The notes below the pieces were generated by a model. It saw nothing but the letters and a program-made list of their open reading frames with translations, made no database searches and was not told the DNA's origin. A stretch of 20,000 bases of DNA from an uncultured virus (IMG/VR IMGVR_UViG_3300024240_000003) (taxonomy: Duplodnaviria; Heunggongvirae; Uroviricota; Caudoviricetes): IMG/VR virus record IMGVR_UViG_3300024240_000003; one strand, 5' to 3'. Both the position numbers and the translations under genes were made by a program. Within the stretch, counting starts at the first letter, position 1. Each line of letters opens with the position of its first letter. Shown here one piece after another: positions 2,381-20,000 of this stretch.

Positions 2381-3259
2381 TTAAATTGACTGATAATAAA
2401 CTACGTTATAATGATTCGTTAATAATTCTTTGATTTTATCCTGCTCCTCTTTCTCCAGTGTTATAAATTCAGACTTTTTTGAAAGCAAATTATTGTATGC
2501 TTCACATTCTTGCGCATTTTTTAATTTCATAATTTCAGTTTTCAATCTCTCCCCCGTTTCTGATAATTCCGAATCTGTCGACCCATCACCCGGCATCGTT
2601 ATATATTCCCTCCAGGTATCCGGATTGAAAAAGGTTTTGCCCAGCTTTATAAATTGCCGTTGTATTTTTGCCGAATAAATGAACTTTTTGTAATTGCTCA
2701 TCGCAGTAAAAAAGTCCTTCAAATCTTGCTCGGAATTAATGGATTGTTGGAAGTGCTCCCACGCTACTTTTTTTCCCATCGGATTCGGATATAAGTTCCA
2801 CGCTCTTAAAAAATCTTTTTCCTGAACTATATATATATTACTTGTATTATTGTTATTAAATGTATGTAGTGAACTTTGTTCACTTTTTAAGTGAACTTTG
2901 TTCACTTTTTTAGTGAACTTTGTTCGCTTTTTAGTTGGTTCAAATTGTGAACTTTGTTCACTTTTTATAATAGCCTTGTCATACCACTTATCAGTGACTT
3001 TCCTGAGATGTCCTTTCTTTTCTAAAAATCCTTGAATTTCCAATTTAGCTTCAATCTTATTCACACCTTCCCGGGTGAATCCAATTAAATCGGCAATTTT
3101 AATTTGATTGATGCTGCACCATCCGCTCTTATTCTTCGGATTGGAAGAGAGGTGATAAATGATATCCAGAACGCAATACTCATTGCACGTTAGCCCCAGT
3201 TCCTTCCTGGCTGTATGATTTATCGTTGTATAATTAACTGTAAAATCCTTTTCGCTCAT
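2381..3259 (-). CDS. Phage replication initiator (lambda O-like, N-terminal winged HTH)
   Basis: N-terminal GLTCNEYCVLDII...GWC...KIADLIGFTREGVNKIEAKLEIQGFLEK wHTH, a central low-complexity linker encoded by iterons, and a C-terminal FLRAWNLYP..GKKVAW....FIKLGKTFFN domain typical of phage replisome organisers. Confidence 0.85.
   Translation of the reverse strand: MSEKDFTVNYTTINHTARKELGLTCNEYCVLDIIYHLSSNPKNKSGWCSINQIKIADLIGFTREGVNKIEAKLEIQGFLEKKGHLRKVTDKWYDKAIIKSEQSSQFEPTKKRTKFTKKVNKVHLKSEQSSLHTFNNNNTSNIYIVQEKDFLRAWNLYPNPMGKKVAWEHFQQSINSEQDLKDFFTAMSNYKKFIYSAKIQRQFIKLGKTFFNPDTWREYITMPGDGSTDSELSETGERLKTEIMKLKNAQECEAYNNLLSKKSEFITLEKEEQDKIKELLTNHYNVVYYQSI
2868..2966. repeat. Four palindromic iterons GTGAACTTTGTTCACTTTTT (putative phage replication origin)
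   Basis: Copies start at 2869, 2891, 2913 (one mismatch) and 2947. Each has the dyad GTGAAC-TTT-GTTCAC. An AT-rich tract lies adjacent at ~2828-2860. Confidence 0.88.
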
Positions 3260-3956: not shown

Positions 3957-4196
3957 TTAAACTTGACTCCAATCATATTCTGCAAATTCTCTGCAATCAT
4001 CACACATAAAAGTATCTGTGGATGGCTTTCCGCAGCACTGACATAATGTTATCAGTGAGAGATTCTTCGGAATTGGCTCATAAAAAATATTAGAGATATC
4101 GACCAATCTTCTTAACTCGAGTATACATGCAATAAATTTTTGTCGTCTCGAAGGTTTGTTAATTCCGCTACTCTGAAGTTGTTTGTTAAATGACAT
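3957..4196 (-). CDS. Small hypothetical protein with C-terminal Zn-ribbon-like motif
   Basis: CQCCGKPSTDTFMCDDC (CxxC-x9-CxxC); packed in the operon. Confidence 0.6.
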   Translation of the reverse strand: MSFNKQLQSSGINKPSRRQKFIACILELRRLVDISNIFYEPIPKNLSLITLCQCCGKPSTDTFMCDDCREFAEYDWSQV

Positions 4197-4215: not shown

Positions 4216-5295
4216 TTAAAGAACATAATCGTTAATATCAATTTCCTCAGTACCCTTTGTGGTATAAGGCTTTTCGCTTTTACCATTTGCGTTCTTTGCA
4301 TCCCGATGTTCTACATATCGGGATTCCGATATGCCGGAACCCAGCAAATCATCCACACATATCTTCTCCAGCTCCTTCGTTTTCTCCGTCATATAAAATT
4401 TTATTACCTTCTTCTCCTCCTTTGAATATGTTCCGTTCGAATTGTTCAGCTCTATCCTCATACTTTCATATTCATCTTTATTGGTTATCTTCCCAATCAA
4501 TTCCTTTACCTTGATTAATTTATTTACATCTTTTCCGGAAGATTTTATTTCGAGGGTAGGTTTGCCTTCTGTAATCTCCAGTGGTATATTTCCATCTGTA
4601 ATTTCAAGAGGAGCAATATCTCCGAGATCAGAAGCACCCGCTAACATCGCATTTCTGTGTTTCCCAGGTTCAAGTTTCCAGAAAGTGCATTTCTTTTCTC
4701 CGTTATATCCTACTTCTACCCATATTACCCACGGCAATCCAAGAAGAATCTTTTGTCTTAATTTTAATTGTGTCCATATATGATCACCATTATTCTTGGA
4801 AGTGGTTTTGAAGCGGATTAGATTGTTTGTTATTATTCCTCCTGTAACCGGATTTGCAATAAAAGCATAAAACTGCACATCATGCCTGCATTCACATTTG
4901 GGCCATTGGCATTCATAATCATTTCCCGGCTCGTATATCCTGCCGTTGCCGTATGGTCCGTCATTCCCCTTTTCATCCTGCTGCTTGAATCTTACAAAGA
5001 ATTTCTTACCGTCACATACTCTTTTTGTTTTATGATTGCTTCCCCATGTTACTCGGCGGTACGTAAAGAAATGTTCTAAAATATTTGAAGGAAAATAAAT
5101 TACAAGTTTATCGGGCTGATTTCCATAATGTGCTTTAATTTCCGGATATTCATCTACATTGAAATATTCGAGTGATTCACCTTCAGGAATCCCATTCGCT
5201 CTTATTTTCCCGGTCGGTCTTCCTGAAGTTATTGGTCTCCGTCTGTCAACTCCAAAATTAACGGCAATGCAGGATTCATCTAAAATTAGTCCCAT
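4216..5295 (-). CDS. Gp3-like (recombination directionality factor-like) phage recombination protein
   Basis: Pattern ITSG...LEYF...YGNQPDKLVIYFP...WG...RVCDG...C..C.C...FKTTSKN resembles the Gp3-like family as recalled; AAGGGG RBS. Confidence 0.55.
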   Translation of the reverse strand: MGLILDESCIAVNFGVDRRRPITSGRPTGKIRANGIPEGESLEYFNVDEYPEIKAHYGNQPDKLVIYFPSNILEHFFTYRRVTWGSNHKTKRVCDGKKFFVRFKQQDEKGNDGPYGNGRIYEPGNDYECQWPKCECRHDVQFYAFIANPVTGGIITNNLIRFKTTSKNNGDHIWTQLKLRQKILLGLPWVIWVEVGYNGEKKCTFWKLEPGKHRNAMLAGASDLGDIAPLEITDGNIPLEITEGKPTLEIKSSGKDVNKLIKVKELIGKITNKDEYESMRIELNNSNGTYSKEEKKVIKFYMTEKTKELEKICVDDLLGSGISESRYVEHRDAKNANGKSEKPYTTKGTEEIDINDYVL

Positions 5296-5323
5296 TTCTT
5301 CCCCTTGAATTTAATATATCAGT

Positions 5324-5992
5324 TTAAAATGTAGAGAGTAATATCCTCTCGTTATTAGTTAATTCCCTGTGAGTTTCTTCGAATTGCTTCTTAGGACACC
5401 ATGATTCGTAAGGCTTGTTAGCTTCTATACTGTAAATAACCTGATATCCTTCCACTTCTTCTAAAATCTTGCCGCCGTTTCTATAAAATTGTTTATTTGT
5501 CATTTCCAGCGCCGCTACAATCTTTGACCCTATATATGGATATAAGATTATTCCTGATGCAACAGGTAGAGGAATATCGAAGAATACTTGTCTGTAAGCA
5601 TTTTCGAATTCTTCTTTCGGACTCCACGATGTGTAACCGCCACTGTAATTTATAAGGTATCCCGGTCGGTCTTCCCGATTTTCCGGATTCTTTGAATGGA
5701 ATTTTAACTCGCTAATCTCTCCGGCATATATAAGTTTTGTCGCAATAAAGATTCTGGGAATCGATTTTATCGCTTCTGTTGATTCGTTTACTAAATCATC
5801 TTCGTTATCTCTTAAAATGTCAGCATCATCAAATTTTCTCATAAATGCCGGTATGTATTCTGTATCTTCGGGTTTGTCCGGAATTACCCCTGTTTCATTA
5901 TCCTGTGCCCCTGAGCCTGCTTTGATTGTATCCGGTCCCAAGCCCTGTAGACTTTTATCATTTTCGTTGGGAACTTTATTTTTTTCTTCCAT
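5324..5992 (-). CDS. Phage protein with acidic N-terminal tail and two tandem copies of a Y/F-I-G/A-T/S-K...GY...Y.SW.PK..FE domain
   Basis: Copy 1 FIATKLIYA...PGYLINYSGGYTSWSPKEEFENAYR; copy 2 YIGSKIVAA...EGYQVIY...YESWCPKKQFEETHR. Confidence 0.8.
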   Translation of the reverse strand: MEEKNKVPNENDKSLQGLGPDTIKAGSGAQDNETGVIPDKPEDTEYIPAFMRKFDDADILRDNEDDLVNESTEAIKSIPRIFIATKLIYAGEISELKFHSKNPENREDRPGYLINYSGGYTSWSPKEEFENAYRQVFFDIPLPVASGIILYPYIGSKIVAALEMTNKQFYRNGGKILEEVEGYQVIYSIEANKPYESWCPKKQFEETHRELTNNERILLSTF

Positions 5993-6038
5993 AATATTTT
6001 TATTTAAATTTTAAAAAAAGTTCTTAAACTTATAAAAT

Positions 6039-6212
6039 GTACAGGCAGAAATCTACTAACGTTTCTCCTGTTTGCAGAGCCTCACGGTTCAAGCGAATAT
6101 TGACTCAACAAACACTGTTTCAGGCTTAAATCTAATTTTTATTTAATACTTTTTTATGTTTTCGAACTACATTTTAATATAATTGGTGATTTAAGTGACT
6201 TCTTACCTGTAC
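6039..6212 (-). ncRNA. Candidate structured non-coding RNA (three-way junction with complementary loops)
   Basis: Closing helix 6212-6194 with 6057-6039; second arm 6195-6188 with 6132-6125; third arm 6124-6067. Multiple G-U pairs are valid only on the minus strand; no ORF. Folded by eye only. Confidence 0.55.
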
Positions 6213-6268
6213 CTTATTTTAAAAAACATGTATTGCTCTTAATTTTCAATTCCGAAAAAAAAAATTAA

Positions 6269-6340
6269 TTAAACGATTATTAGAGCAATTAAGAAAAGTA
6301 GTACAACTGTCCCGAAAACTAACAAATATGGATTTCTCAT
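6269..6340 (-). CDS. 23-aa single-helix membrane micro-protein MRNPYLLVFGTVVLLFLIALIIV
   Basis: Manual translation. Strong RBS (AAGGAGAGG) just upstream of the ATG; residues 5-23 are uninterruptedly non-charged and hydrophobic. Confidence 0.7.
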   Translation of the reverse strand: MRNPYLLVFGTVVLLFLIALIIV

Positions 6341-6370
6341 AACCTCTCCTTGCGTTTTTAGTTTATAAAA

Positions 6371-6931
6371 TTAATTGCTTTGTACTTCTTCCAGGTTGAA
6401 CATAGCTTTCATTTTTTCTTGTAAATCCGAACATCTCTTCCCAATTGCCTCAATTGTGTATTTTTTTTCATCCGGAGGCTCGGTACTTCTACTAAATTCG
6501 AACTTAATCTTCCCCTCCGTCCTTAAACATTTCATCTTCATAAGTTCGAAAGGCTCTTTCACGTCCTTCATCAGTGCTTCCCCGACTCTCGATATCGCAT
6601 TAGCTCTCGGAAAAAGACTCTTCTTAACGTACCTTTCAACCTTTCTGGGGTCCGGCTCTACCCAGTATCCCCGCCCATTTGCTACTAATCTTGGCACTAA
6701 GCGGTTTTCCCTGATATAATGGATGTATTTCCTCACGTCCGTAGAGGGCAACTTCTTGCCCTTTTTCGTCTTGAATCCTAATTTAAAAAGCCCCGCCGCA
6801 ATATCCTGGATTGAAATAAACTTCTCTTTACCAACATGATTTAACAGGAAAGACCGCACAATGCACGGTATCAACCGATTCTTTTCCCACTCGTCTAATG
6901 GCTTCGTTAATATTTCAAATCCTTCAAGCAT
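6371..6931 (-). CDS. Hypothetical phage protein, probable winged-HTH DNA-binding domain
   Basis: GKEKFISIQDI...STDVRKYIHYIRE...LVANGRGYW pattern suggests a wHTH; TAATG coupling with the upstream gene. Confidence 0.7.
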   Translation of the reverse strand: MLEGFEILTKPLDEWEKNRLIPCIVRSFLLNHVGKEKFISIQDIAAGLFKLGFKTKKGKKLPSTDVRKYIHYIRENRLVPRLVANGRGYWVEPDPRKVERYVKKSLFPRANAISRVGEALMKDVKEPFELMKMKCLRTEGKIKFEFSRSTEPPDEKKYTIEAIGKRCSDLQEKMKAMFNLEEVQSN

Positions 6932-7411: not shown

Positions 7412-7741
7412 TTACTTTGACCTGAACCTTATCTTTTGATTTTTAAAATCCGGAATTGAAACTCCGCATCCTTCATCATGGAAATTGTAAATACCCGTTT
7501 CGTAATCGTAATCAATACCATCAGTATTAATTGTTACCATACTTGTATCCCCGTTGTCACGCACAGTCGTTATCTCCACCTGCCACCAGGTATCAGTTGA
7601 TATCTTGTGACCCGGTGTATCCGTCACCTTGTTATTCTGTGGCTCATTTGGCATGTTTTGATTGCAACCAAATATTTCTATTGTAACCATAGCTAATACT
7701 ACAAATGCTGCTAAGACCAGTAATGTTTTTTCGTATCTCAT
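7412..7741 (-). CDS. Exported protein / probable lipoprotein
   Basis: Hydrophobic signal followed by IFGC and a polar linker; AGGAGG RBS. Confidence 0.72.
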   Translation of the reverse strand: MRYEKTLLVLAAFVVLAMVTIEIFGCNQNMPNEPQNNKVTDTPGHKISTDTWWQVEITTVRDNGDTSMVTINTDGIDYDYETGIYNFHDEGCGVSIPDFKNQKIRFRSK

Positions 7742-7813
7742 TTTAAACCTCCTATTTTTTAATTTTTTTGAAAAAATTTCTTATAAAAGTCGCTATTGCT
7801 CTAATTTGTTCTT

Positions 7814-7854
7814 AAAAAAAGTTTGCCCGCCTGACGAAGATAGGCGGGCAAACC
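7814..7854 (-). terminator. Intrinsic terminator inside the leftward operon
   Basis: Perfect 12-bp stem GTTTGCCCGCCT/AGGCGGGCAAAC (7821-7853) followed on the minus strand by T7. Confidence 0.85.
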
Positions 7855-7861
7855 AAATTTT

Positions 7862-8125
7862 TTAACCGTCACCGGAACCGTCACCGGAACCGGAACCGTC
7901 ACCGGAACCGTAACCGGAACCGTCACCGGAACCGTAACCGGAACCGTCACCGGAACCGTAACCGGAACCGTAACCGGAACCGTAACCGTAACCGTAACCG
8001 GAACCGGAACCGGAACCGGAACCGGAACCGGAACCGGAACCGTAACCGGAACCGTAACCGTAACCGTCACCGGAACCGTCACCGGAACCGGAACCGGAAC
8101 CGGAACCGGAATTTACTTTTCCCAT
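7862..8125 (-). CDS. Glycine-rich (G-S/G-Y/G-D)n repeat protein, 87 aa (probable start MGKVNS at 8125)
   Basis: 40 Gly-X dipeptides. The ATG overlaps the end of the DUF6948 gene, a pairing recurrent in phages. Confidence 0.75.
   Translation of the reverse strand: MGKVNSGSGSGSGSGDGSGDGYGYGSGYGSGSGSGSGSGSGSGYGYGYGSGYGSGYGSGDGSGYGSGDGSGYGSGDGSGSGDGSGDG
7865..8110 (-). repeat. Hexamer tandem array GGTTCC/GGTTAC/GGTGAC
   Basis: About 40 contiguous 6-nt units of only three variants, directly visible. Confidence 0.97.
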
Positions 8126-8409
8126 ACCGGTACCTCTTTTATACTTTTTTCTGCGGCAGGTGTACAATCTATTATTTCAATTGCTTCAGTCAATTCCACT
8201 CTGTCAACTTCACAAGGGAATTTGCAATTTTCAGGTTTTTTTACACCTTCCATAGCAAGCTGACTTAATGATGCTGCTCCGTCCCAGTACCATAGCCGCC
8301 TCGCTTTTTCCATTACCACTTCTTTTCCTTTCTTTGCAATAATGTATCCGGCAAATACACCTGCTGAAAATGTTCTTACAATCTGATATTTCTTTTTGCC
8401 TTTAGGCAT
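8113..8409 (-). CDS. DUF6948 family phage protein
   Basis: IVRTFSAGVFAG...ARRLWYWDGAASLSQLAMEG...EAIEIIDCT..A..SI.EVPVW; AAGGAG RBS. Confidence 0.85.
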   Translation of the reverse strand: MPKGKKKYQIVRTFSAGVFAGYIIAKKGKEVVMEKARRLWYWDGAASLSQLAMEGVKKPENCKFPCEVDRVELTEAIEIIDCTPAAEKSIKEVPVWEK

Positions 8410-8647: not shown

Positions 8648-8853
8648 GCCACCCTCTGCCTCTTTGAGTTCCATTCGTTCCATGTCGTTCTTAAATTCCT
8701 CTTGAACCATGTCGCACTCGCGTCGATTATATCCGCATCCATTAAATCCTTGAGCATCCCCTGCTCCTCCGCATTAAGCCTTACCATTACAGGAAGCTGG
8801 TCTTCTTTGGCTCTGGCTCTTCTCTTTTTTTCTCTTTGATTTTGATTTGACAT
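8644..8853 (-). CDS. Cro-position regulator, probable ribbon-helix-helix DNA-binding protein
   Basis: First gene of the leftward operon, divergent from the repressor. PVMVRLNAEEQGMLKDLM matches an RHH strand-helix pattern. Confidence 0.6.
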   Translation of the reverse strand: MSNQNQREKKRRARAKEDQLPVMVRLNAEEQGMLKDLMDADIIDASATWFKRNLRTTWNEWNSKRQRVA

Positions 8854-8875
8854 TGTCAAATATTCTCTTTATGTT
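8847..8875 (+). promoter_or_regulatory. Putative rightward (repressor) promoter
   Basis: TTGACA (8847-8852), 17 bp spacer, TATGTT (8870-8875). The -35 is half of the palindrome TTGACATTGTCAA. Confidence 0.5.
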
Positions 8876-8898
8876 AATTAAAATTATTTTGTGTTACG

Positions 8899-8945
8899 CA
8901 AAGTTAATAGAAATATTTCCATTTGTCAAGGGGATATTTCTATTA
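8899..8945 (-). promoter_or_regulatory. Leftward (lytic) promoter overlapped by an inverted-repeat operator
   Basis: Minus strand TTGACA (8929-8924), 17 bp, TAACTT(TG) (8906-8899; also fits the Bacteroidota TAnnTTTG element). Inverted repeat TAATAGAAATAT (8905-8916) / ATATTTCTATTA (8934-8945). Confidence 0.72.
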
Positions 8946-8963
8946 TGTAAAAATTTTTTATTC

Positions 8964-9317
8964 ATGGATATAACGGACAGGTTAAAGGAAATTATCGGTG
9001 ACTCTGATTTAAAAAAATTTGCTGACTTAATTAATGCCGACCCTTCAAGCTTAACAAAATATTTAAAAGGTACTATAAAGCCTACAACCGAGTTCTATAG
9101 AGCATTAACAGAGAAACTGCATATTAGTATTAGTTGGCTTATTGCCGGTATTGGAAGTAAGTATATTAATGCGGATTCTTATGATACATTAATTAAGGAA
9201 AATCTATTATTGAAAGACTCGTTAAAAAAAATTACCTACTCTATTTCAAGTGAGGTGTCTAAAATTGATAAAATTTCTAAACTGGATATTCCAAAAATTA
9301 AAAAGGTAAAAAAATAA
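8964..9317 (+). CDS. CI-like XRE-family HTH repressor (probable start MDITDRLK at 8964)
   Basis: DRLKEII...KKFADLINADPSSLTKYLKGTIKP...ISISWLIAGIG XRE fold; coiled-coil-like C-terminus; no S24 peptidase domain. Confidence 0.88.
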   Translation: MDITDRLKEIIGDSDLKKFADLINADPSSLTKYLKGTIKPTTEFYRALTEKLHISISWLIAGIGSKYINADSYDTLIKENLLLKDSLKKITYSISSEVSKIDKISKLDIPKIKKVKK

Positions 9318-10652: not shown

Positions 10653-10724
<72 letters not shown>

Positions 10725-10793
10725 CACTCAATATTAAATGTTAAATGTTAAATTAAGAGCATTTTCATTTTAAATAGTTTTTTCGCAGATAAT

Positions 10794-12068: not shown

Positions 12069-12140
12069 AATCTAAATTAGAAATTCAATTTCTAATCAAT
12101 TTTACATTTATCTTTATAAATTAATACTTTAATTTATTTT

Positions 12141-13448
12141 ATGGATTTGTTTGATGATAATATTGTAAAGGAAAATGTGCCGCTTTCGGAGCGGATGCGA
12201 CCGAAGACACTCGATGAATTTGCCGGACAGGAGCATCTTGTCGGAACCGGGCGTCCGATTAGATTAATGATTGAAAGGAATGACCCTGTGTCTATGATAT
12301 TCTGGGGTCCTCCGGGAGTTGGGAAAACAACACTCGCTTTAATCATCGCTAATTCGGTAAAAGCTAATTTCATACAGCTCTCCGCAGTTTCATCGGGCGT
12401 TAAAGATGTAAGAGAAGCAATTGAAAAAGCAGGACGCGACCAAAAATATTCTCGAGCGAAGACTATTGTTTTCATTGATGAAATTCACAGGTTCAATAAA
12501 GCCCAGCAGGATTCGCTCCTGCACAGCGTTGAAAAAGGTATTATAATTTTAATCGGTGCAACTACAGAAAATCCTTCTTTCGAAGTTATTTCTCCTCTGC
12601 TTTCGAGATGTAGAGTTTACGTCCTCGAAGAATTGAAGCAAAAAGATTTTGAGAATATGATGACGAGAGTTTTGAAAGAAGATGAATTTTTAAAAGATAA
12701 AAATATTATTATCGAAGATAAAAAATTTCTTATTAAAATGTCCAATGGCGACGGAAGGAGATTATTGAATGGTCTCGAACTCGCTACGAAAATTACCAAA
12801 CCCGAAGATGATAATTCGGTAAGGATTACAAATGATATTTTAAAAGAAGCATTCCAGACAAACTATATTAAATACGATAAGAATCAGGAAGAACATTATA
12901 ATATAATTTCAGCGTTCATTAAAAGTATGCGTGGAAGCGACCCTGATGCAGCCGTTTACTGGCTTGCAAGAATGCTTAAAGGCGGCGAGGACCCGAAATT
13001 CATTGCACGGCGAATGATTGTACTTGCTTCCGAAGATGTGGGTAATGCAGATCCTTACGCATTAACGCTTGCTACGAGTACATTTACGGCTGTAAATTAT
13101 ATAGGAATGCCGGAAGCAAGAATAATATTGGCACAAACGGCAGTATATCTTTCGAGCTGTCCGAAAAGCAATTCTTCTTATATGGCGGTTGAGGGCGCCT
13201 ACGGCGATGTTAATGATTTACCGGCTTATGACGTTCCGATGCATTTGAGAAATGCTCCGACAAAGCTGATGAAAGAACTCGGATATCACGAAGGTTATAA
13301 ATATGCGCATAGTTTCGAAAATCATTTTGTCGAAATGGATTACCTGCCGAAGGAATTGAAAGATAAAATTTATTATCACCCGACAGAATTCGGAACGGAA
13401 GGAAAGTTTAAGAAACGTTTGAATGAATTGTGGAAAAAAAGGAAATAA
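12141..13448 (+). CDS. rarA: Replication-associated recombination protein A (MgsA/RarA AAA+ ATPase)
   Basis: PLSERMRP, GPPGVGKTT, FIDEIHRFNKAQQD, GATTENPSF, KSMRGSDPDAA and VPMHLRNAPT motifs. Confidence 0.97.
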   Translation: MDLFDDNIVKENVPLSERMRPKTLDEFAGQEHLVGTGRPIRLMIERNDPVSMIFWGPPGVGKTTLALIIANSVKANFIQLSAVSSGVKDVREAIEKAGRDQKYSRAKTIVFIDEIHRFNKAQQDSLLHSVEKGIIILIGATTENPSFEVISPLLSRCRVYVLEELKQKDFENMMTRVLKEDEFLKDKNIIIEDKKFLIKMSNGDGRRLLNGLELATKITKPEDDNSVRITNDILKEAFQTNYIKYDKNQEEHYNIISAFIKSMRGSDPDAAVYWLARMLKGGEDPKFIARRMIVLASEDVGNADPYALTLATSTFTAVNYIGMPEARIILAQTAVYLSSCPKSNSSYMAVEGAYGDVNDLPAYDVPMHLRNAPTKLMKELGYHEGYKYAHSFENHFVEMDYLPKELKDKIYYHPTEFGTEGKFKKRLNELWKKRK

Positions 13449-13451
13449 TAA

Positions 13452-13479
13452 TTTTGAATGTTGAATTTTGAATGTTGAA
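13452..13479. repeat. Heptamer tandem repeat (T[T/G]TTGAA)x4
   Basis: TTTTGAA TGTTGAA TTTTGAA TGTTGAA immediately after the rarA stop. Confidence 0.8.
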
Positions 13480-13523
13480 TAAAAAATTATTTGTGATTAA
13501 TTATTAGCTATTTATTCAATACG

Positions 13524-13592
13524 AACGGAAAACCCCTAACGGGGTTGTTAAATTTTAATTATTTCCTATAAACGGAAAACCCTAACGGGGTT
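13524..13592. repeat. Pair of REP-like hairpins AACGGAAAACCC(C)TAACGGGGTT
   Basis: Copies at 13524-13546 and 13571-13592 between convergent rarA and ltaE. Confidence 0.8.
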
Positions 13593-13645
13593 TTAAATAC
13601 AAAGCTTTATTAATATTATATTTTTAGCAAATAATTAAAAATTCA

Positions 13646-14665
13646 TTACAAATTTTTAATCACTTCCACTGCGGTTTTTACTTCATCCATACTTACATCG
13701 AGATGGAAGACGGCGCGGAGATTTTCGAAACTACCAGCAGAAATTAAAACACCTTTTTCTTTCATAATTTTTATAAAATCCGGTTTTGCAAATTTTGATG
13801 TTGAAAAAACGACAATATTAGTATGAACTAATTCCGGATTTAAATTAATCCAGTCGAGATTGGAAATTTCTTTGGCGAAATATTTTGCTTTATTATTATC
13901 TTCTTTTAATCTTTCAATGTTGTTATCGAGAGCGTAAAGTGCAGCAGCAGCAAGTATTCCGGCTTGTCTCATTCCACCGCCGAGAATTTTTCTCCACCTG
14001 TGAGCGATTGTAATAAATTCGTTAGTCCCGCAAATTATAGAGCCGACAGGTGCGCCAAGTCCTTTGGAAAAGCAGAATGAAATTGAATCAAAATAACTTG
14101 CATATTCTTTAATGGTAATTCCGGTCTCAACGTATGCATTAAAAATCCTCGCACCATCCATATGCAGTTTAATTCCGTTTTCTCTCGCGAAATTTGAAAT
14201 TTCTTTAATGTATTCAATCGGCTGAATCACTCCGCCTGCACGGTTATGAGTATTTTCAAGACAAATTAATCTTGTTCTGGGAAAATAATATTCTTTAGTT
14301 CTTACGAATTTTTTTAGTTCATCCAGTTGCATAATGCCGTTCTCACCGACTACAGTCATGACCTGAACGTTCGAAATTATTGATGGCGCCGCTGTTTCGT
14401 AATTAAATATATGAGATTCTGATTCGAGTATAATTTCATCACCAGGTTGTGTATGAGACTTTACGGAAAGCTGGTTCCCGAGACATCCTGAAGATACGTA
14501 TAATGCTCTTTCTTTACCTGTTAATCCGGCACATCGTTCCTGTAGTTTGTTTATGGTTGGGTCTTCGCCGAAAACATCATCGCCTACTTCAGCGTTAAAC
14601 ATTGCTTCCCGCATGCCTTTAGAAGGTTTAGTGACCGTATCGCTTCTGATGTCTATGTAGTTCAT
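13646..14665 (-). CDS. ltaE: Low-specificity L-threonine aldolase
   Basis: IDIRSDTVTKP, GDDVFGEDPT, LENTHN, HMDGARIFNA, CFSKGLGAPVGS and GGGMRQAG motifs. Confidence 0.95.
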   Translation of the reverse strand: MNYIDIRSDTVTKPSKGMREAMFNAEVGDDVFGEDPTINKLQERCAGLTGKERALYVSSGCLGNQLSVKSHTQPGDEIILESESHIFNYETAAPSIISNVQVMTVVGENGIMQLDELKKFVRTKEYYFPRTRLICLENTHNRAGGVIQPIEYIKEISNFARENGIKLHMDGARIFNAYVETGITIKEYASYFDSISFCFSKGLGAPVGSIICGTNEFITIAHRWRKILGGGMRQAGILAAAALYALDNNIERLKEDNNKAKYFAKEISNLDWINLNPELVHTNIVVFSTSKFAKPDFIKIMKEKGVLISAGSFENLRAVFHLDVSMDEVKTAVEVIKNL

Positions 14666-18200: not shown

Positions 18201-19742
18201 TTATTTTAATAAAATCATTTTTTTTGTGTTGCTAAAATTTCCAGCAGTTATTTTATAGAAATAAACTCCGCTCGGCAGCTGGTAATCGGGAAACCGGTTA
18301 ATTGAAAATGGTATTTCATAAGTACCGGGTTGTAATTTTTCATTAACCAAAGTTGCTATTTCCTTTCCGAGAATGTTGAATACTTTTAATGTCACAAATC
18401 TTGAATCTTTAATCCGGAATTTTATAATCGTAGTCGGATTGAACGGATTTGGATAATTTTGGGACAAAGAATATTTTTCAGGTAATATATGATTTTTATT
18501 AGAAACACCTATTACATCAAATAACCTGTTTGAAAATATGCGTTTATTCGTTCCATCAGAACCAACCCATATTGCTCCCATATCAGGCATAGTAAAATAT
18601 TCAATTATAGAAGGAATATATAATCTGGAAGACCATCCCGGAAAATTTGTATTGTCAATTTTTGCCGGAACTGTAAATCCGTTCGGAGTTCCTGCTGCAG
18701 CCCATGTATACATCAGTTTATCCGAGTTAACATTGGGATTTCCGTTTTGTAAACTATCCCGGTAATATATTAAATCAACACCTCCGTCATAAGCAGTATG
18801 AAATTTAACATCAAACCAGTATTCATCTACATTTGGTATTCCCCCTGCCACGGTAAACGGATAATTAAAAAAACCTCCATTATCAAAACTGACCCGGCAA
18901 ACTATATCTATTGAGCCGGTTGTACCCATAGTATTAAAAAACCAGACAATATTCTGGTAAGCGATTGTTGCAAATTCCGGTTTAGTATCCGTTCCGGTTA
19001 CTATATTTATAAAATCAATTGCACTTATTACACCTATTGAAGTTTCACGGTATCTTCCCTGCCTGATGGTCGAGGTTGCTGTATCTGCTAGAACCGGTGA
19101 ATAATAATTCAAAAATAACGTATCTCCTGAGTATGATTTTGATACATGCGGCTTAGCTGCATTGTTTTCAACTGTTCCGAAATTTGGCCAGCTTATCCCT
19201 CCATCTGTTGATCCTTTTCTGATTGCATTGTGCGATGATCCGTTTAGAGTATCGGCAAATACATATAAACCGCCCGTTGATGTTGCAGCAACATCAAATT
19301 CCTTCAAAGGACCCGAAGAGACCGGACTAAATCTGCCATTCAAAACATTCCAGTTGTAAACGGATGAACCATACCAAAAAAAACATACTACTGAATCTAA
19401 ACCAGTGCAAATCATTTTTGTCTTTCCGCAAACAAATGCCGGATGTAACCCGACCAGCGCTGACCACGACGCACCATGGTTTGATGAAACATAAATAATG
19501 ATTCCGTATTCCTGCCCGGGATAAATGTTTGTATCAGGAACCGATACATAAATGTTTCCGTTTGATTTTTCCACTCCGGACATTCTTCCCATAGGTTCTG
19601 ATGATGATATTAAAACATCATTACCCCAGTTTGGTGAATCAATATTAGCAGTTACGGGTTGAAAATAATGAATGGAAAAATTTTGTGAATAATTGATATT
19701 TGTGCTTAAGAAAATTAGGATGAGCAAGTAGAATTTAATCAT
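18201..19742 (-). CDS. Secreted Asp-box (BNR) beta-propeller-like protein with T9SS type A C-terminal sorting domain (probable start MIKFY at 19742)
   Basis: Signal peptide; SSNHGASW, STDGGISW and SFDNGGFF Asp-boxes; YSLSQNYPNPFNPTT...LPSGVYFY...TKKMILLK CTD; AAGGAG RBS. Confidence 0.88.
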   Translation of the reverse strand: MIKFYLLILIFLSTNINYSQNFSIHYFQPVTANIDSPNWGNDVLISSSEPMGRMSGVEKSNGNIYVSVPDTNIYPGQEYGIIIYVSSNHGASWSALVGLHPAFVCGKTKMICTGLDSVVCFFWYGSSVYNWNVLNGRFSPVSSGPLKEFDVAATSTGGLYVFADTLNGSSHNAIRKGSTDGGISWPNFGTVENNAAKPHVSKSYSGDTLFLNYYSPVLADTATSTIRQGRYRETSIGVISAIDFINIVTGTDTKPEFATIAYQNIVWFFNTMGTTGSIDIVCRVSFDNGGFFNYPFTVAGGIPNVDEYWFDVKFHTAYDGGVDLIYYRDSLQNGNPNVNSDKLMYTWAAAGTPNGFTVPAKIDNTNFPGWSSRLYIPSIIEYFTMPDMGAIWVGSDGTNKRIFSNRLFDVIGVSNKNHILPEKYSLSQNYPNPFNPTTIIKFRIKDSRFVTLKVFNILGKEIATLVNEKLQPGTYEIPFSINRFPDYQLPSGVYFYKITAGNFSNTKKMILLK

Positions 19743-20000
19743 TTTGAAACTCCTTTTTAATAATTTTAAAATTATATGGAGCAACTAAATATATCAGGAA
19801 GTTCGGATTAAATTAATGTACGTATTATTTTAATTAATAGTTTCAAATCAGGAATTTCTCAATAAATAATATTTGAACTAATTTATTTTAATTTATATTT
19901 ATTAAAATTTAATATTAATAAATTAATATTAATCTTTGAATTTGATTTGAGAATCTAAATATTTATTTTATTTGAATTTATCATTATGGGATTTATGAAT

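Follow-up and report, generated by a model that had tools for sequence, protein, structure and literature searches.

A candidate structured RNA with a predicted three-way junction among the early genes of a rare prophage

A gap between early genes of an uncultured prophage probably encodes a genuine structured RNA of 174 nt, which by computation folds around a three-way junction and which is so far unique, in a prophage that is itself rare. The window analysed here is the whole 20,000-nt stretch of IMG/VR record IMGVR_UViG_3300024240_000003, and the positions of the element and of its surroundings are collected in Table 1. At present the RNA is one sequence with a good fold, for which the evidential ceiling is low; the novel family suggested by a preliminary description of this DNA cannot be claimed from a single sequence. 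Structured phage RNAs without a known function form a class that is recognised but sparsely sampled; covariation, the route by which most of them came to light, overlooks rare cases such as this element. The element should be easily transcribed and could be examined in vitro without its host.

Folding strength and helices of the element

The RNA of the minus (operon) strand, 6212-6039, folds at -40.9 kcal/mol, an energy reached by none of 200 shuffled sequences (z -3.80), whereas the plus strand of 6039-6212 gives a weaker RNA fold (z -2.47, 2/200). Folded as single-stranded DNA, the two strands of 6039-6212 have z-scores of -1.47 and -1.72, which are not significant. Because the preliminary description had set the ends of the element at P1, a further control left the ends free and shuffled the sequence in four composition blocks; the minus strand again beat its controls (z -3.29, 2/500), with z -1.72 (22/500) for the plus strand. 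These results bear out the earlier proposal that the symmetry lies at the level of RNA rather than DNA, and structure on the operon strand is favoured. The same proposal had counted at least six G-U wobbles on the operon strand, and six are indeed present in the helices as first drawn, against one A-C pairing on the other strand.

When windows were scanned over 40 kb, the element ranked 20th of 2,648 (z -4.0), with 19 windows stronger, while in the background of the same scan 3 of 2,648 shuffles had z below -3. The fold is real in the sense of lying above chance, yet it is not the strongest of the prophage. The strongest of the 40 kb (z to -6.3) lies at 2760-3050 of the window, where repeated palindromic units inside the replication-initiator gene are probably the phage origin iterons. 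Windows with z between -3.8 and -5.5 also occur around late-gene boundaries in L076, another locus of the prophage (3999-4172, 4492, 5130-5390, 6087 and 7595-7855).

Table 1. Features of the element and of its surroundings, in window coordinates unless stated otherwise
Feature	Position	Strand	Description or basis
Candidate structured RNA, three-way junction	6039-6212 (174 nt)	minus	Folding, pair probabilities, shuffles
P1 5' strand	6197-6212	minus	Pairs with 6039-6053 over 15 bp, two of them G-U; one A bulges out
P1 3' strand	6039-6053	minus	Pair probabilities
P2 arm	6125-6195	minus	8-bp base 6195-6188/6132-6125 is firm; two folds compete in the AU-rich upper part
P3 arm	6069-6114	minus	Three helices with 16 bp in all, of which three are G-U; a bulge of 5 nt
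Loop 2	6160-6168	minus	9 nt; open only in P2 as first drawn
Loop 3	6086-6092	minus	7 nt; putative kiss partner of loop 2, or T-loop pentaloop plus two extruded bases
J2/3 junction strand	6115-6124	minus	10 nt; T-loop-like pentaloop closed by C-G
J3/1 junction strand	6054-6068	minus	15 nt; purine-rich, mostly unpaired
14-nt direct repeat, first copy	6121-6134	minus	12/14 identical to 6042-6055
G-U pairs in helices as first drawn	8-167, 14-162, 36-64, 105-138, 110-133, 119-129 (RNA numbering)		Sequence
3' flank	5993-6038	minus	GC 6.5%; nearly unstructured, -2.0 kcal/mol
5' flank	6213-6268	minus	GC 18%; contains 8-codon ORF 6229-6203 ending inside P1
Probable small membrane-peptide gene	6269-6340	minus	23 aa, hydrophobic, strong Shine-Dalgarno; absent from the preliminary description
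Upstream gene	6371-6931	minus	186 aa; N-terminal 125 aa are an unnamed phage family
Downstream gene	5324-5992	minus	222 aa; an unnamed SH3/Tudor-like domain occurs twice
Repressor	8847-9317		phrog_4; faces short Cro-like ORF of the leftward set
tRNA-Gly	10653-10725		Boundary between prophage and host genes

Every motif named in the preliminary description was found where it had been placed, and the helices drawn from these motifs were partly revised. In the RNA numbering used here, position i corresponds to window coordinate 6213-i. P1 consists of 1-8/167-174 and 10-16/160-166 (pair probabilities 0.96-1.0), with a register at A9/A10 that splits 0.48/0.51, and past a 3-nt bulge it can be extended by six A-U pairs, 6221-6216/6038-6033. 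The original drawing used three bases twice (C18, U19 and C143), so P1 is taken to be 15 bp and not about 18: the top three pairs, in which C18 and U19 are reused from the base of P2, have a probability of 0.17-0.20. The long P2 arm is retained at its base, 18-25/81-88 (0.78-0.80), and differs from the drawing in its upper part, where the predicted ground state favours a rival hairpin, 29-36/41-48, at 0.77-0.96. In P3, the helices 99-105/138-144, 107-111/132-136 and 117-120/128-131 (0.78-0.99) close a 7-nt loop, 121-127, and the arm has a GC content of 47%, as against 33% for the whole element; the further helix CCUG/CAGG drops out, as it reuses C143 of the next helix and is energetically unfavourable (-36.2 kcal/mol with it, -37.1 without). 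P1, the base of P2 and P3 are thus well supported by the folding model, and the three-way junction that they enclose is supported too; the frame of the fold appears to be present, and the top of P2 is doubtful.

Loop contacts and comparison with known RNAs

The two apical loops had been described as kissing. Their complementarity (6167-6162/6092-6087) amounts to 6 bp with one G-U, and no 6-mer of the element other than RNA positions 46-51 fits loop 3. The helix itself is not established, because the predicted ground state leaves loop 3 open and hides loop 2, whose kissing-strand bases G46-U48 are buried by hairpin 29-36/41-48. Forcing P2 into the hairpin as first drawn costs 2.96 kcal/mol, whereas the stacking sum of the loop-loop helix is -8.2 kcal/mol with loop penalties left out, as the program does not model them, so the kissed form could win. 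Among 20,000 shuffles of the interior of P2, 2,566 contained a fitting 6-mer, 500 had it in a hairpin loop and 240 were as cheap as the real sequence; for random loops of 9 and 7 nt, complementarity by chance is about 1%. The shuffle result (p ~0.012) was obtained after the fact and is suggestive, no substitute for covariation. We would put an intramolecular kiss between loops 2 and 3 at about an even chance.

Other wiring of the same loops can be drawn. In loop 2, two purines and one A flank a self-complementary hexamer (6166-6161), and this 2+6+1 palindromic arrangement is the geometry of the HIV-1 dimer-initiation loop. The chance of a palindromic hexamer is 3.8%, and the duplex energy of L2/L2 (-5.5 kcal/mol) equals that of L2/L3 (-5.4 kcal/mol); both points would suit dimers in which loop 2 of one molecule pairs with loop 2 of another. 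Loop 2 also presumably resembles a tRNA T-loop, and loop 2, loop 3 and J2/3, matched by eye, all fit U-N-R-N-A, which we take to be the T-loop consensus, so that T-loop modules might interdigitate or dock tRNA-like elbows. Palindromic intermolecular kisses are known in OLE and GOLLD, according to the part of the source available (PMC12286853), and interdigitated T-loops, which have almost no Watson-Crick pairs, are suggested in the accessible text of another report as something to look for in viral RNAs (PMC4919913). The consensus is short, however, and pattern scans built on these motifs gave no family. Moreover, known interdigitated T-loop pairs come from adjacent strands, not from the tips of two long arms. 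We therefore consider T-loop or dimer wiring quite unlikely.

The preliminary description could not match the element to a known family, and no match was obtained here either. A search of Rfam 15 with 5950-6400 (451 nt) gave no match at E<=10, and the whole window at E<=1 yielded two tRNAs and one unrelated 26-nt match, all outside the element. Among the named families compared, it appears to belong to none, and in kind it would be a phage structured RNA with loop-loop contacts. The pRNA of phi29-family phages, which is about 174 nt long in phi29, has a three-way junction and two arms with complementary apical loops; in the element the junction is predicted and the loop complementarity is present, but loop 2 is closed in the predicted ground state. 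It serves phi29-like packaging motors, whereas the present RNA lies among early genes of a TerL/TerS prophage; pRNA was rejected on the presence of large and small terminase subunits in the same prophage and the empty Rfam search. Sequence conservation among pRNA members is low, 12% in the portion of the source available (PMC5340915). Should the fold and the kiss both hold, the element would be a small RNA built like pRNA, in a temperate phage of the terminase type whose host is uncultured.

ROOL and GOLLD are encoded by phages and prophages and have no known function, and together with OLE they use kissing loops, some of them palindromic and intermolecular, as far as the available part of the report extends (PMC12286853). 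These RNAs are several times longer, many-branched, often found by tRNA islands and represented by Rfam models, in contrast to the 174 nt and single junction of the element. Small closed junction RNAs cut from the early transcript of temperate phages, by small ORFs, are exemplified by P1 C4 and P4 CI, and the element would be like them in all these respects. An antisense RNA of C4/CI type was rejected: no complement of at least 11 nt (with at least 3 G/C) occurs within 800 nt, no C4-family Rfam match was obtained, and the longest complement of the element on either strand of ~45 kb of the prophage is 11-12 nt. In lysine and purine riboswitch aptamers and in the SRP Alu domain, two parallel arms are joined by a loop-loop helix above the junction; unlike them, the element shows no conserved ligand-binding core, Rfam match (E 10, 451 nt) or expression platform. 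A retron or DRT ncRNA was rejected as well, as no reverse transcriptase family was found among the 22 ORFs of the window or 16 further prophage ORFs; the one PF00078 match of G001, the nearest genome, is on a different contig, and the model finds nothing nearby. This match region holds a single host reverse transcriptase of 495 aa (L696 838-2325, minus strand; G001:C158), by eye defence-associated rather than of group II intron type.

Several of these comparisons bear on whether the sequence functions as RNA at all. It might be an AU-rich spacer that folds by chance, or what is left of a decayed ribozyme or of a small mobile element with inverted repeats; no diverged homologue was found in the collections searched (see below), and the plus strand also folds somewhat. 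The ends, TA-CAGG...CCTG-TA, resemble those of a TA-targeting element. A MITE or TA-targeting inverted-repeat element was nevertheless rejected, as G001 has a single full copy and the end motif has 15 matches against 9 in the control; the terminal motif is paired at the element only, among the matches listed. Type III hammerheads have a three-way junction with a loop I-loop II pseudoknot and are common between prophage genes, in the part of the literature source available (PMC3088659). The element is likewise predicted to have a three-way junction, lies between phage genes and has GUC, CUGA and GAAAC in the same order, whereas its junction strands, of 10 and 15 nt, are longer than a hammerhead would have. 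A hammerhead was rejected: neither CUGANGA nor CUGANNGA occurs on either strand of the 378-nt gap, G8-A9 is absent, and forcing the register U15-A151 plus G14-C152, in which a U16.1-A15.1 pair would close stem III next to GAA, costs 10.6 kcal/mol. The sole UUGANAA of the gap lies upstream, at 6249, with no U3-A8 core in register. With z between -3.3 and -4.0 in three controls, DNA folding that is not significant, and phage genomes that would rarely retain 300 idle bases, we regard a non-functional origin as unlikely.

The intergenic gap, neighbouring genes and candidate roles

Within the window, the operon has no gap larger than the 378-nt one that holds the element, and the next measures 120 nt. 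It had been called the only large non-coding gap; its size is confirmed, but 72 of its 378 nt are a probable 23-codon gene. Considered as a type I toxin-antitoxin locus, the region has this 23-aa hydrophobic ORF and a fold that favours the sense strand, and promoter-like sites on the plus strand at 6010-6038 number 4 against 2.5 expected, which is chance level, with no terminator. No minus-strand promoter was called in the 5' flank (6213-6268), and 3' of P1 there is no credible terminator or SD-sequestering hairpin (-1.2 to -2.0 kcal/mol). Since the element has no called promoter or terminator of its own, its release would need processing. Five RNA runs contain part of the window, and the assembled contigs of four of them were compared with the element; those of three runs do not touch it, and in the fourth (X13), among the pieces listed, coverage stops at 6075 and resumes at 6209, which is uninformative on a transcript either way.

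The first 125 residues of the upstream gene product belong to a family of 455 representatives with a weak winged-HTH likeness. The downstream product is predicted to contain a tandem beta-barrel domain of ~60 residues. Comparisons by sequence, with Foldseek and with VIA-align matched this domain to nothing in the PDB (best Z 4.7), a domain scan rejected it as Acb4 itself, and it has no description in the accessible portions of the literature consulted, including PMC13728456. Proteins headed by this domain occur in 37 IMG/VR loci; in all five proteins scanned (L039, L040, L061, L063 and L068), the domain is followed by Tad2 (2), Sequestin (2) or Acb4/PF13876 (1), the fused Pfam families being PF11195, PF21825 and PF13876. 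Tad2, Sequestin and Acb4 are families of immune-signal sponges, and Sequestin was itself discovered through fusion to sponge families, in the available part of that study (10.1101/2025.07.12.664507). By the same fusion logic, the SH3/Tudor-like domain is a candidate new anti-defence family.

The reading that we tentatively favour, while rating it somewhat below an even chance, is that the RNA is cut from the early operon transcript, persists as a compact molecule and uses its unpaired junction strands to bind a protein. It would be a self-contained structured domain, carried as accessory cargo in the long leftward (early) transcript of the prophage. P1 would clamp both ends, with P2 and P3 as two bulged arms, as in the computed fold; the arms might lie side by side, with loop 2 pairing to loop 3 in a Mg-dependent manner that overrides the rival P2 hairpin. 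Host endonucleases could cut the AU-rich unpaired flanks or P1 to leave a stable RNA of ~175 nt after induction, which would act in trans as a protein decoy or scaffold, most plausibly in counter-defence, as the neighbouring gene suggests. What supports this reading is strand-specific folding above chance, together with ends tied by a 15-bp stem between flanks of 6.5% and 18% GC, a layout typical of RNAs processed from phage operons such as tRNAs, P1 C4 and P4 CI. The sole 6-mer fitting the kiss (240/20,000 shuffles), the 5-8-nt bulges that could bend both arms, and the fusion of the neighbour's domain to sponge families elsewhere are consistent with the same reading. Against it stand the single sequence, a folding model that favours a structure hiding loop 2, and the 19 stronger windows in 40 kb.

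A role as partner of either neighbour is opposed by relatives of these genes: near homologues of the upstream gene no such RNA was found (0 of 82 loci, 0 of 50 whole records), and a one-sequence covariance model (R1) had no match in the 10 loci of downstream-domain relatives that were examined. Nearness to a sponge-associated domain is weak evidence in any case, as phage accessory genes cluster anyway and the domain has no known function. A new type of phage counter-defence, in which a kissing-loop RNA soaks up a host immune protein, binds a cyclic-nucleotide immune signal or, by sensing such a signal, switches on the sponge-associated gene, is a long shot; were the RNA to work with that domain, it would join the protein sponges of phage counter-defence.

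The order in which the helices form bears on two further readings. The direct repeat allows the 5' end of P1 to pair early with 6124-6121 during transcription. In prefix folding, early pairs (4-7/89-92), along with pairing of J3/1 to the start of the 8-codon ORF, are replaced once the P1 3' strand emerges. The repeat and the two folds of P2 offer alternative structures during transcription, and these, the giving way of the early fold and the 8-codon ORF that terminates inside P1 would all suit a cis-acting switch: an attenuator, an antiterminator or a ligand- or protein-sensing leader that sets the 222-aa gene and later genes. Antitermination is called for by a gene array that shares one strand from 8859 to the virion genes, and a three-way junction with a loop-loop contact is a frequent riboswitch plan. 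We nonetheless give a cis switch fairly little credence, because the sequence 3' of P1 offers neither a credible terminator nor an SD-sequestering hairpin, 46 nt of unstructured sequence separate P1 from the start of the downstream gene, searches matched no riboswitch family, and related prophages manage without the element.

Prefix folding also shows that P1 holds most of the stability, the energy falling from -24.9 kcal/mol at 160 nt to -40.9 at full length. P1, which can reach 21 bp, could on this basis be a plain RNase III-type processing site or a 5' stabiliser that divides the early transcript, with an incidental interior and incidental loop complementarity, and intergenic processing stems do occur in phage early mRNAs. 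A simple hairpin would suffice for that purpose, however, and P3 is independently well formed and rich in G-U, with the kiss at p ~0.012; we judge a mere stem to be quite unlikely.

Relatives of the element and its prophage setting

G001 (93% complete) contains one full copy of the element, and the sole other match found, in L480, is identical over 576/576 nt. No diverged homologue was detected in genome, phage, plasmid, viral or metagenome collections by blastn, R1 or exact patterns, the last two of which have low sensitivity. Blastn returned short AT-rich matches only in 38 non-self genomes among 401 of the phylum (best E 1.2e-4), 25-26-nt matches in three INPHARED phage records (E 0.6), and 137 plasmid records, where one match of 34 nt falls within a gene (E 0.05). 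Under strict filters, R1 found only the self match in overlapping samples of 116 order, 150 class and 150 phylum genomes; its best E was 1.95 in five genomes with related phage genes and, unfiltered, 0.039 in six loci, with stems and loops broken. Viral pattern scans gave 71 loci with no relative, a further 47 with none by R1 (0/47), at least 117 in which an alignment screen showed no diverged relative, and 72 with a best R1 E of 0.64. The genome scan gave 85 loci, 80 of them put through R1 (best E 0.042, many broken pairs), and the metagenome scan 110 loci, all aligned and 100 put through R1, with no diverged relative. A sequence-blind hunt for a junction plus kiss in 39 distinct gaps from 129 phage loci produced eight candidates, none of the same architecture by eye. 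The available portions of the literature held no description of the 174-nt RNA, and five short motifs were absent from the six supplementary files of PMC10690425 that were searched.

Distant relatives do occur in the family of the host: of 115 other genomes of the order, 3 carry homologues of the 359-aa gene, which is located two genes downstream. In one of these, G495, the early region has no gap above 62 nt from the Cro-like gene to the 359-aa homologue, and by eye the prophage has neither flanking gene; in G459, the homologue directly adjoins its next gene. The prophage of G495 is related and shares the layout of the early region; as it has no such gap, the RNA and its neighbours appear to form an accessory block.

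The window is the right part of a prophage, and the prophage context given in the preliminary description agrees with the terminase subunits, repressor and replication initiator that were identified. From 8859 leftward, the minus strand holds every gene as far as the virion genes: a Cro-like ORF, small early genes, a VRR-NUC nuclease, the replication initiator (phrog_270), a Cas4-like nuclease and DUF5131, continued in G001 by a ParB-like gene, GroES, small and large terminase subunits and very large ORFs. TerL (phrog_979, E 4e-23) and TerS (phrog_51, E 8e-21) lie in the same prophage, ~15 kb from the RNA. The attachment site is one that we infer, because the opposite prophage end and the integrase are not on the contig. 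What we take to be a type IX secretion-style C-terminus in the product of 18201-19784 suggests an FCB-group, Ignavibacteria-like host. Metagenome runs containing the window come from peat, permafrost and wetland. Among 5.8 billion clusters, the two flanking proteins and a probable capsid protein each matched only a near-identical self, and by this measure the prophage itself appears rare.

Other features of the prophage were also observed. A second multibranch intergenic element, followed by a terminator-like stem, lies at 16643-16897 of L076 (minus strand, z -1.93); two of its loops have 5-nt complementarity, it has no Rfam match, and the model does not align it to the 174-nt element. The same locus encodes a phage GroES and a DHH phosphoesterase (12114-12416 and 13390-14445, minus strand). 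One or more giant ORFs at 3-12016 of L077 (minus strand; 2,703 and 1,304+ aa) have helicase-like motifs by eye; the larger has no PHROG match, and runs of N in the assembly may split one protein. At 7801-8167 of the window, a Gly-Ser/Gly-Tyr-Gly repeat ORF adjoins the DUF6948 gene (8113-8409). The G001 assembly differs from the window at tRNA-Gly, which is partly missing there, and just past this tRNA (10729-10765, plus strand) lies a repeat of ~30-35 nt that recurs at ~45 places in G001 and resembles a REP-like host repeat.
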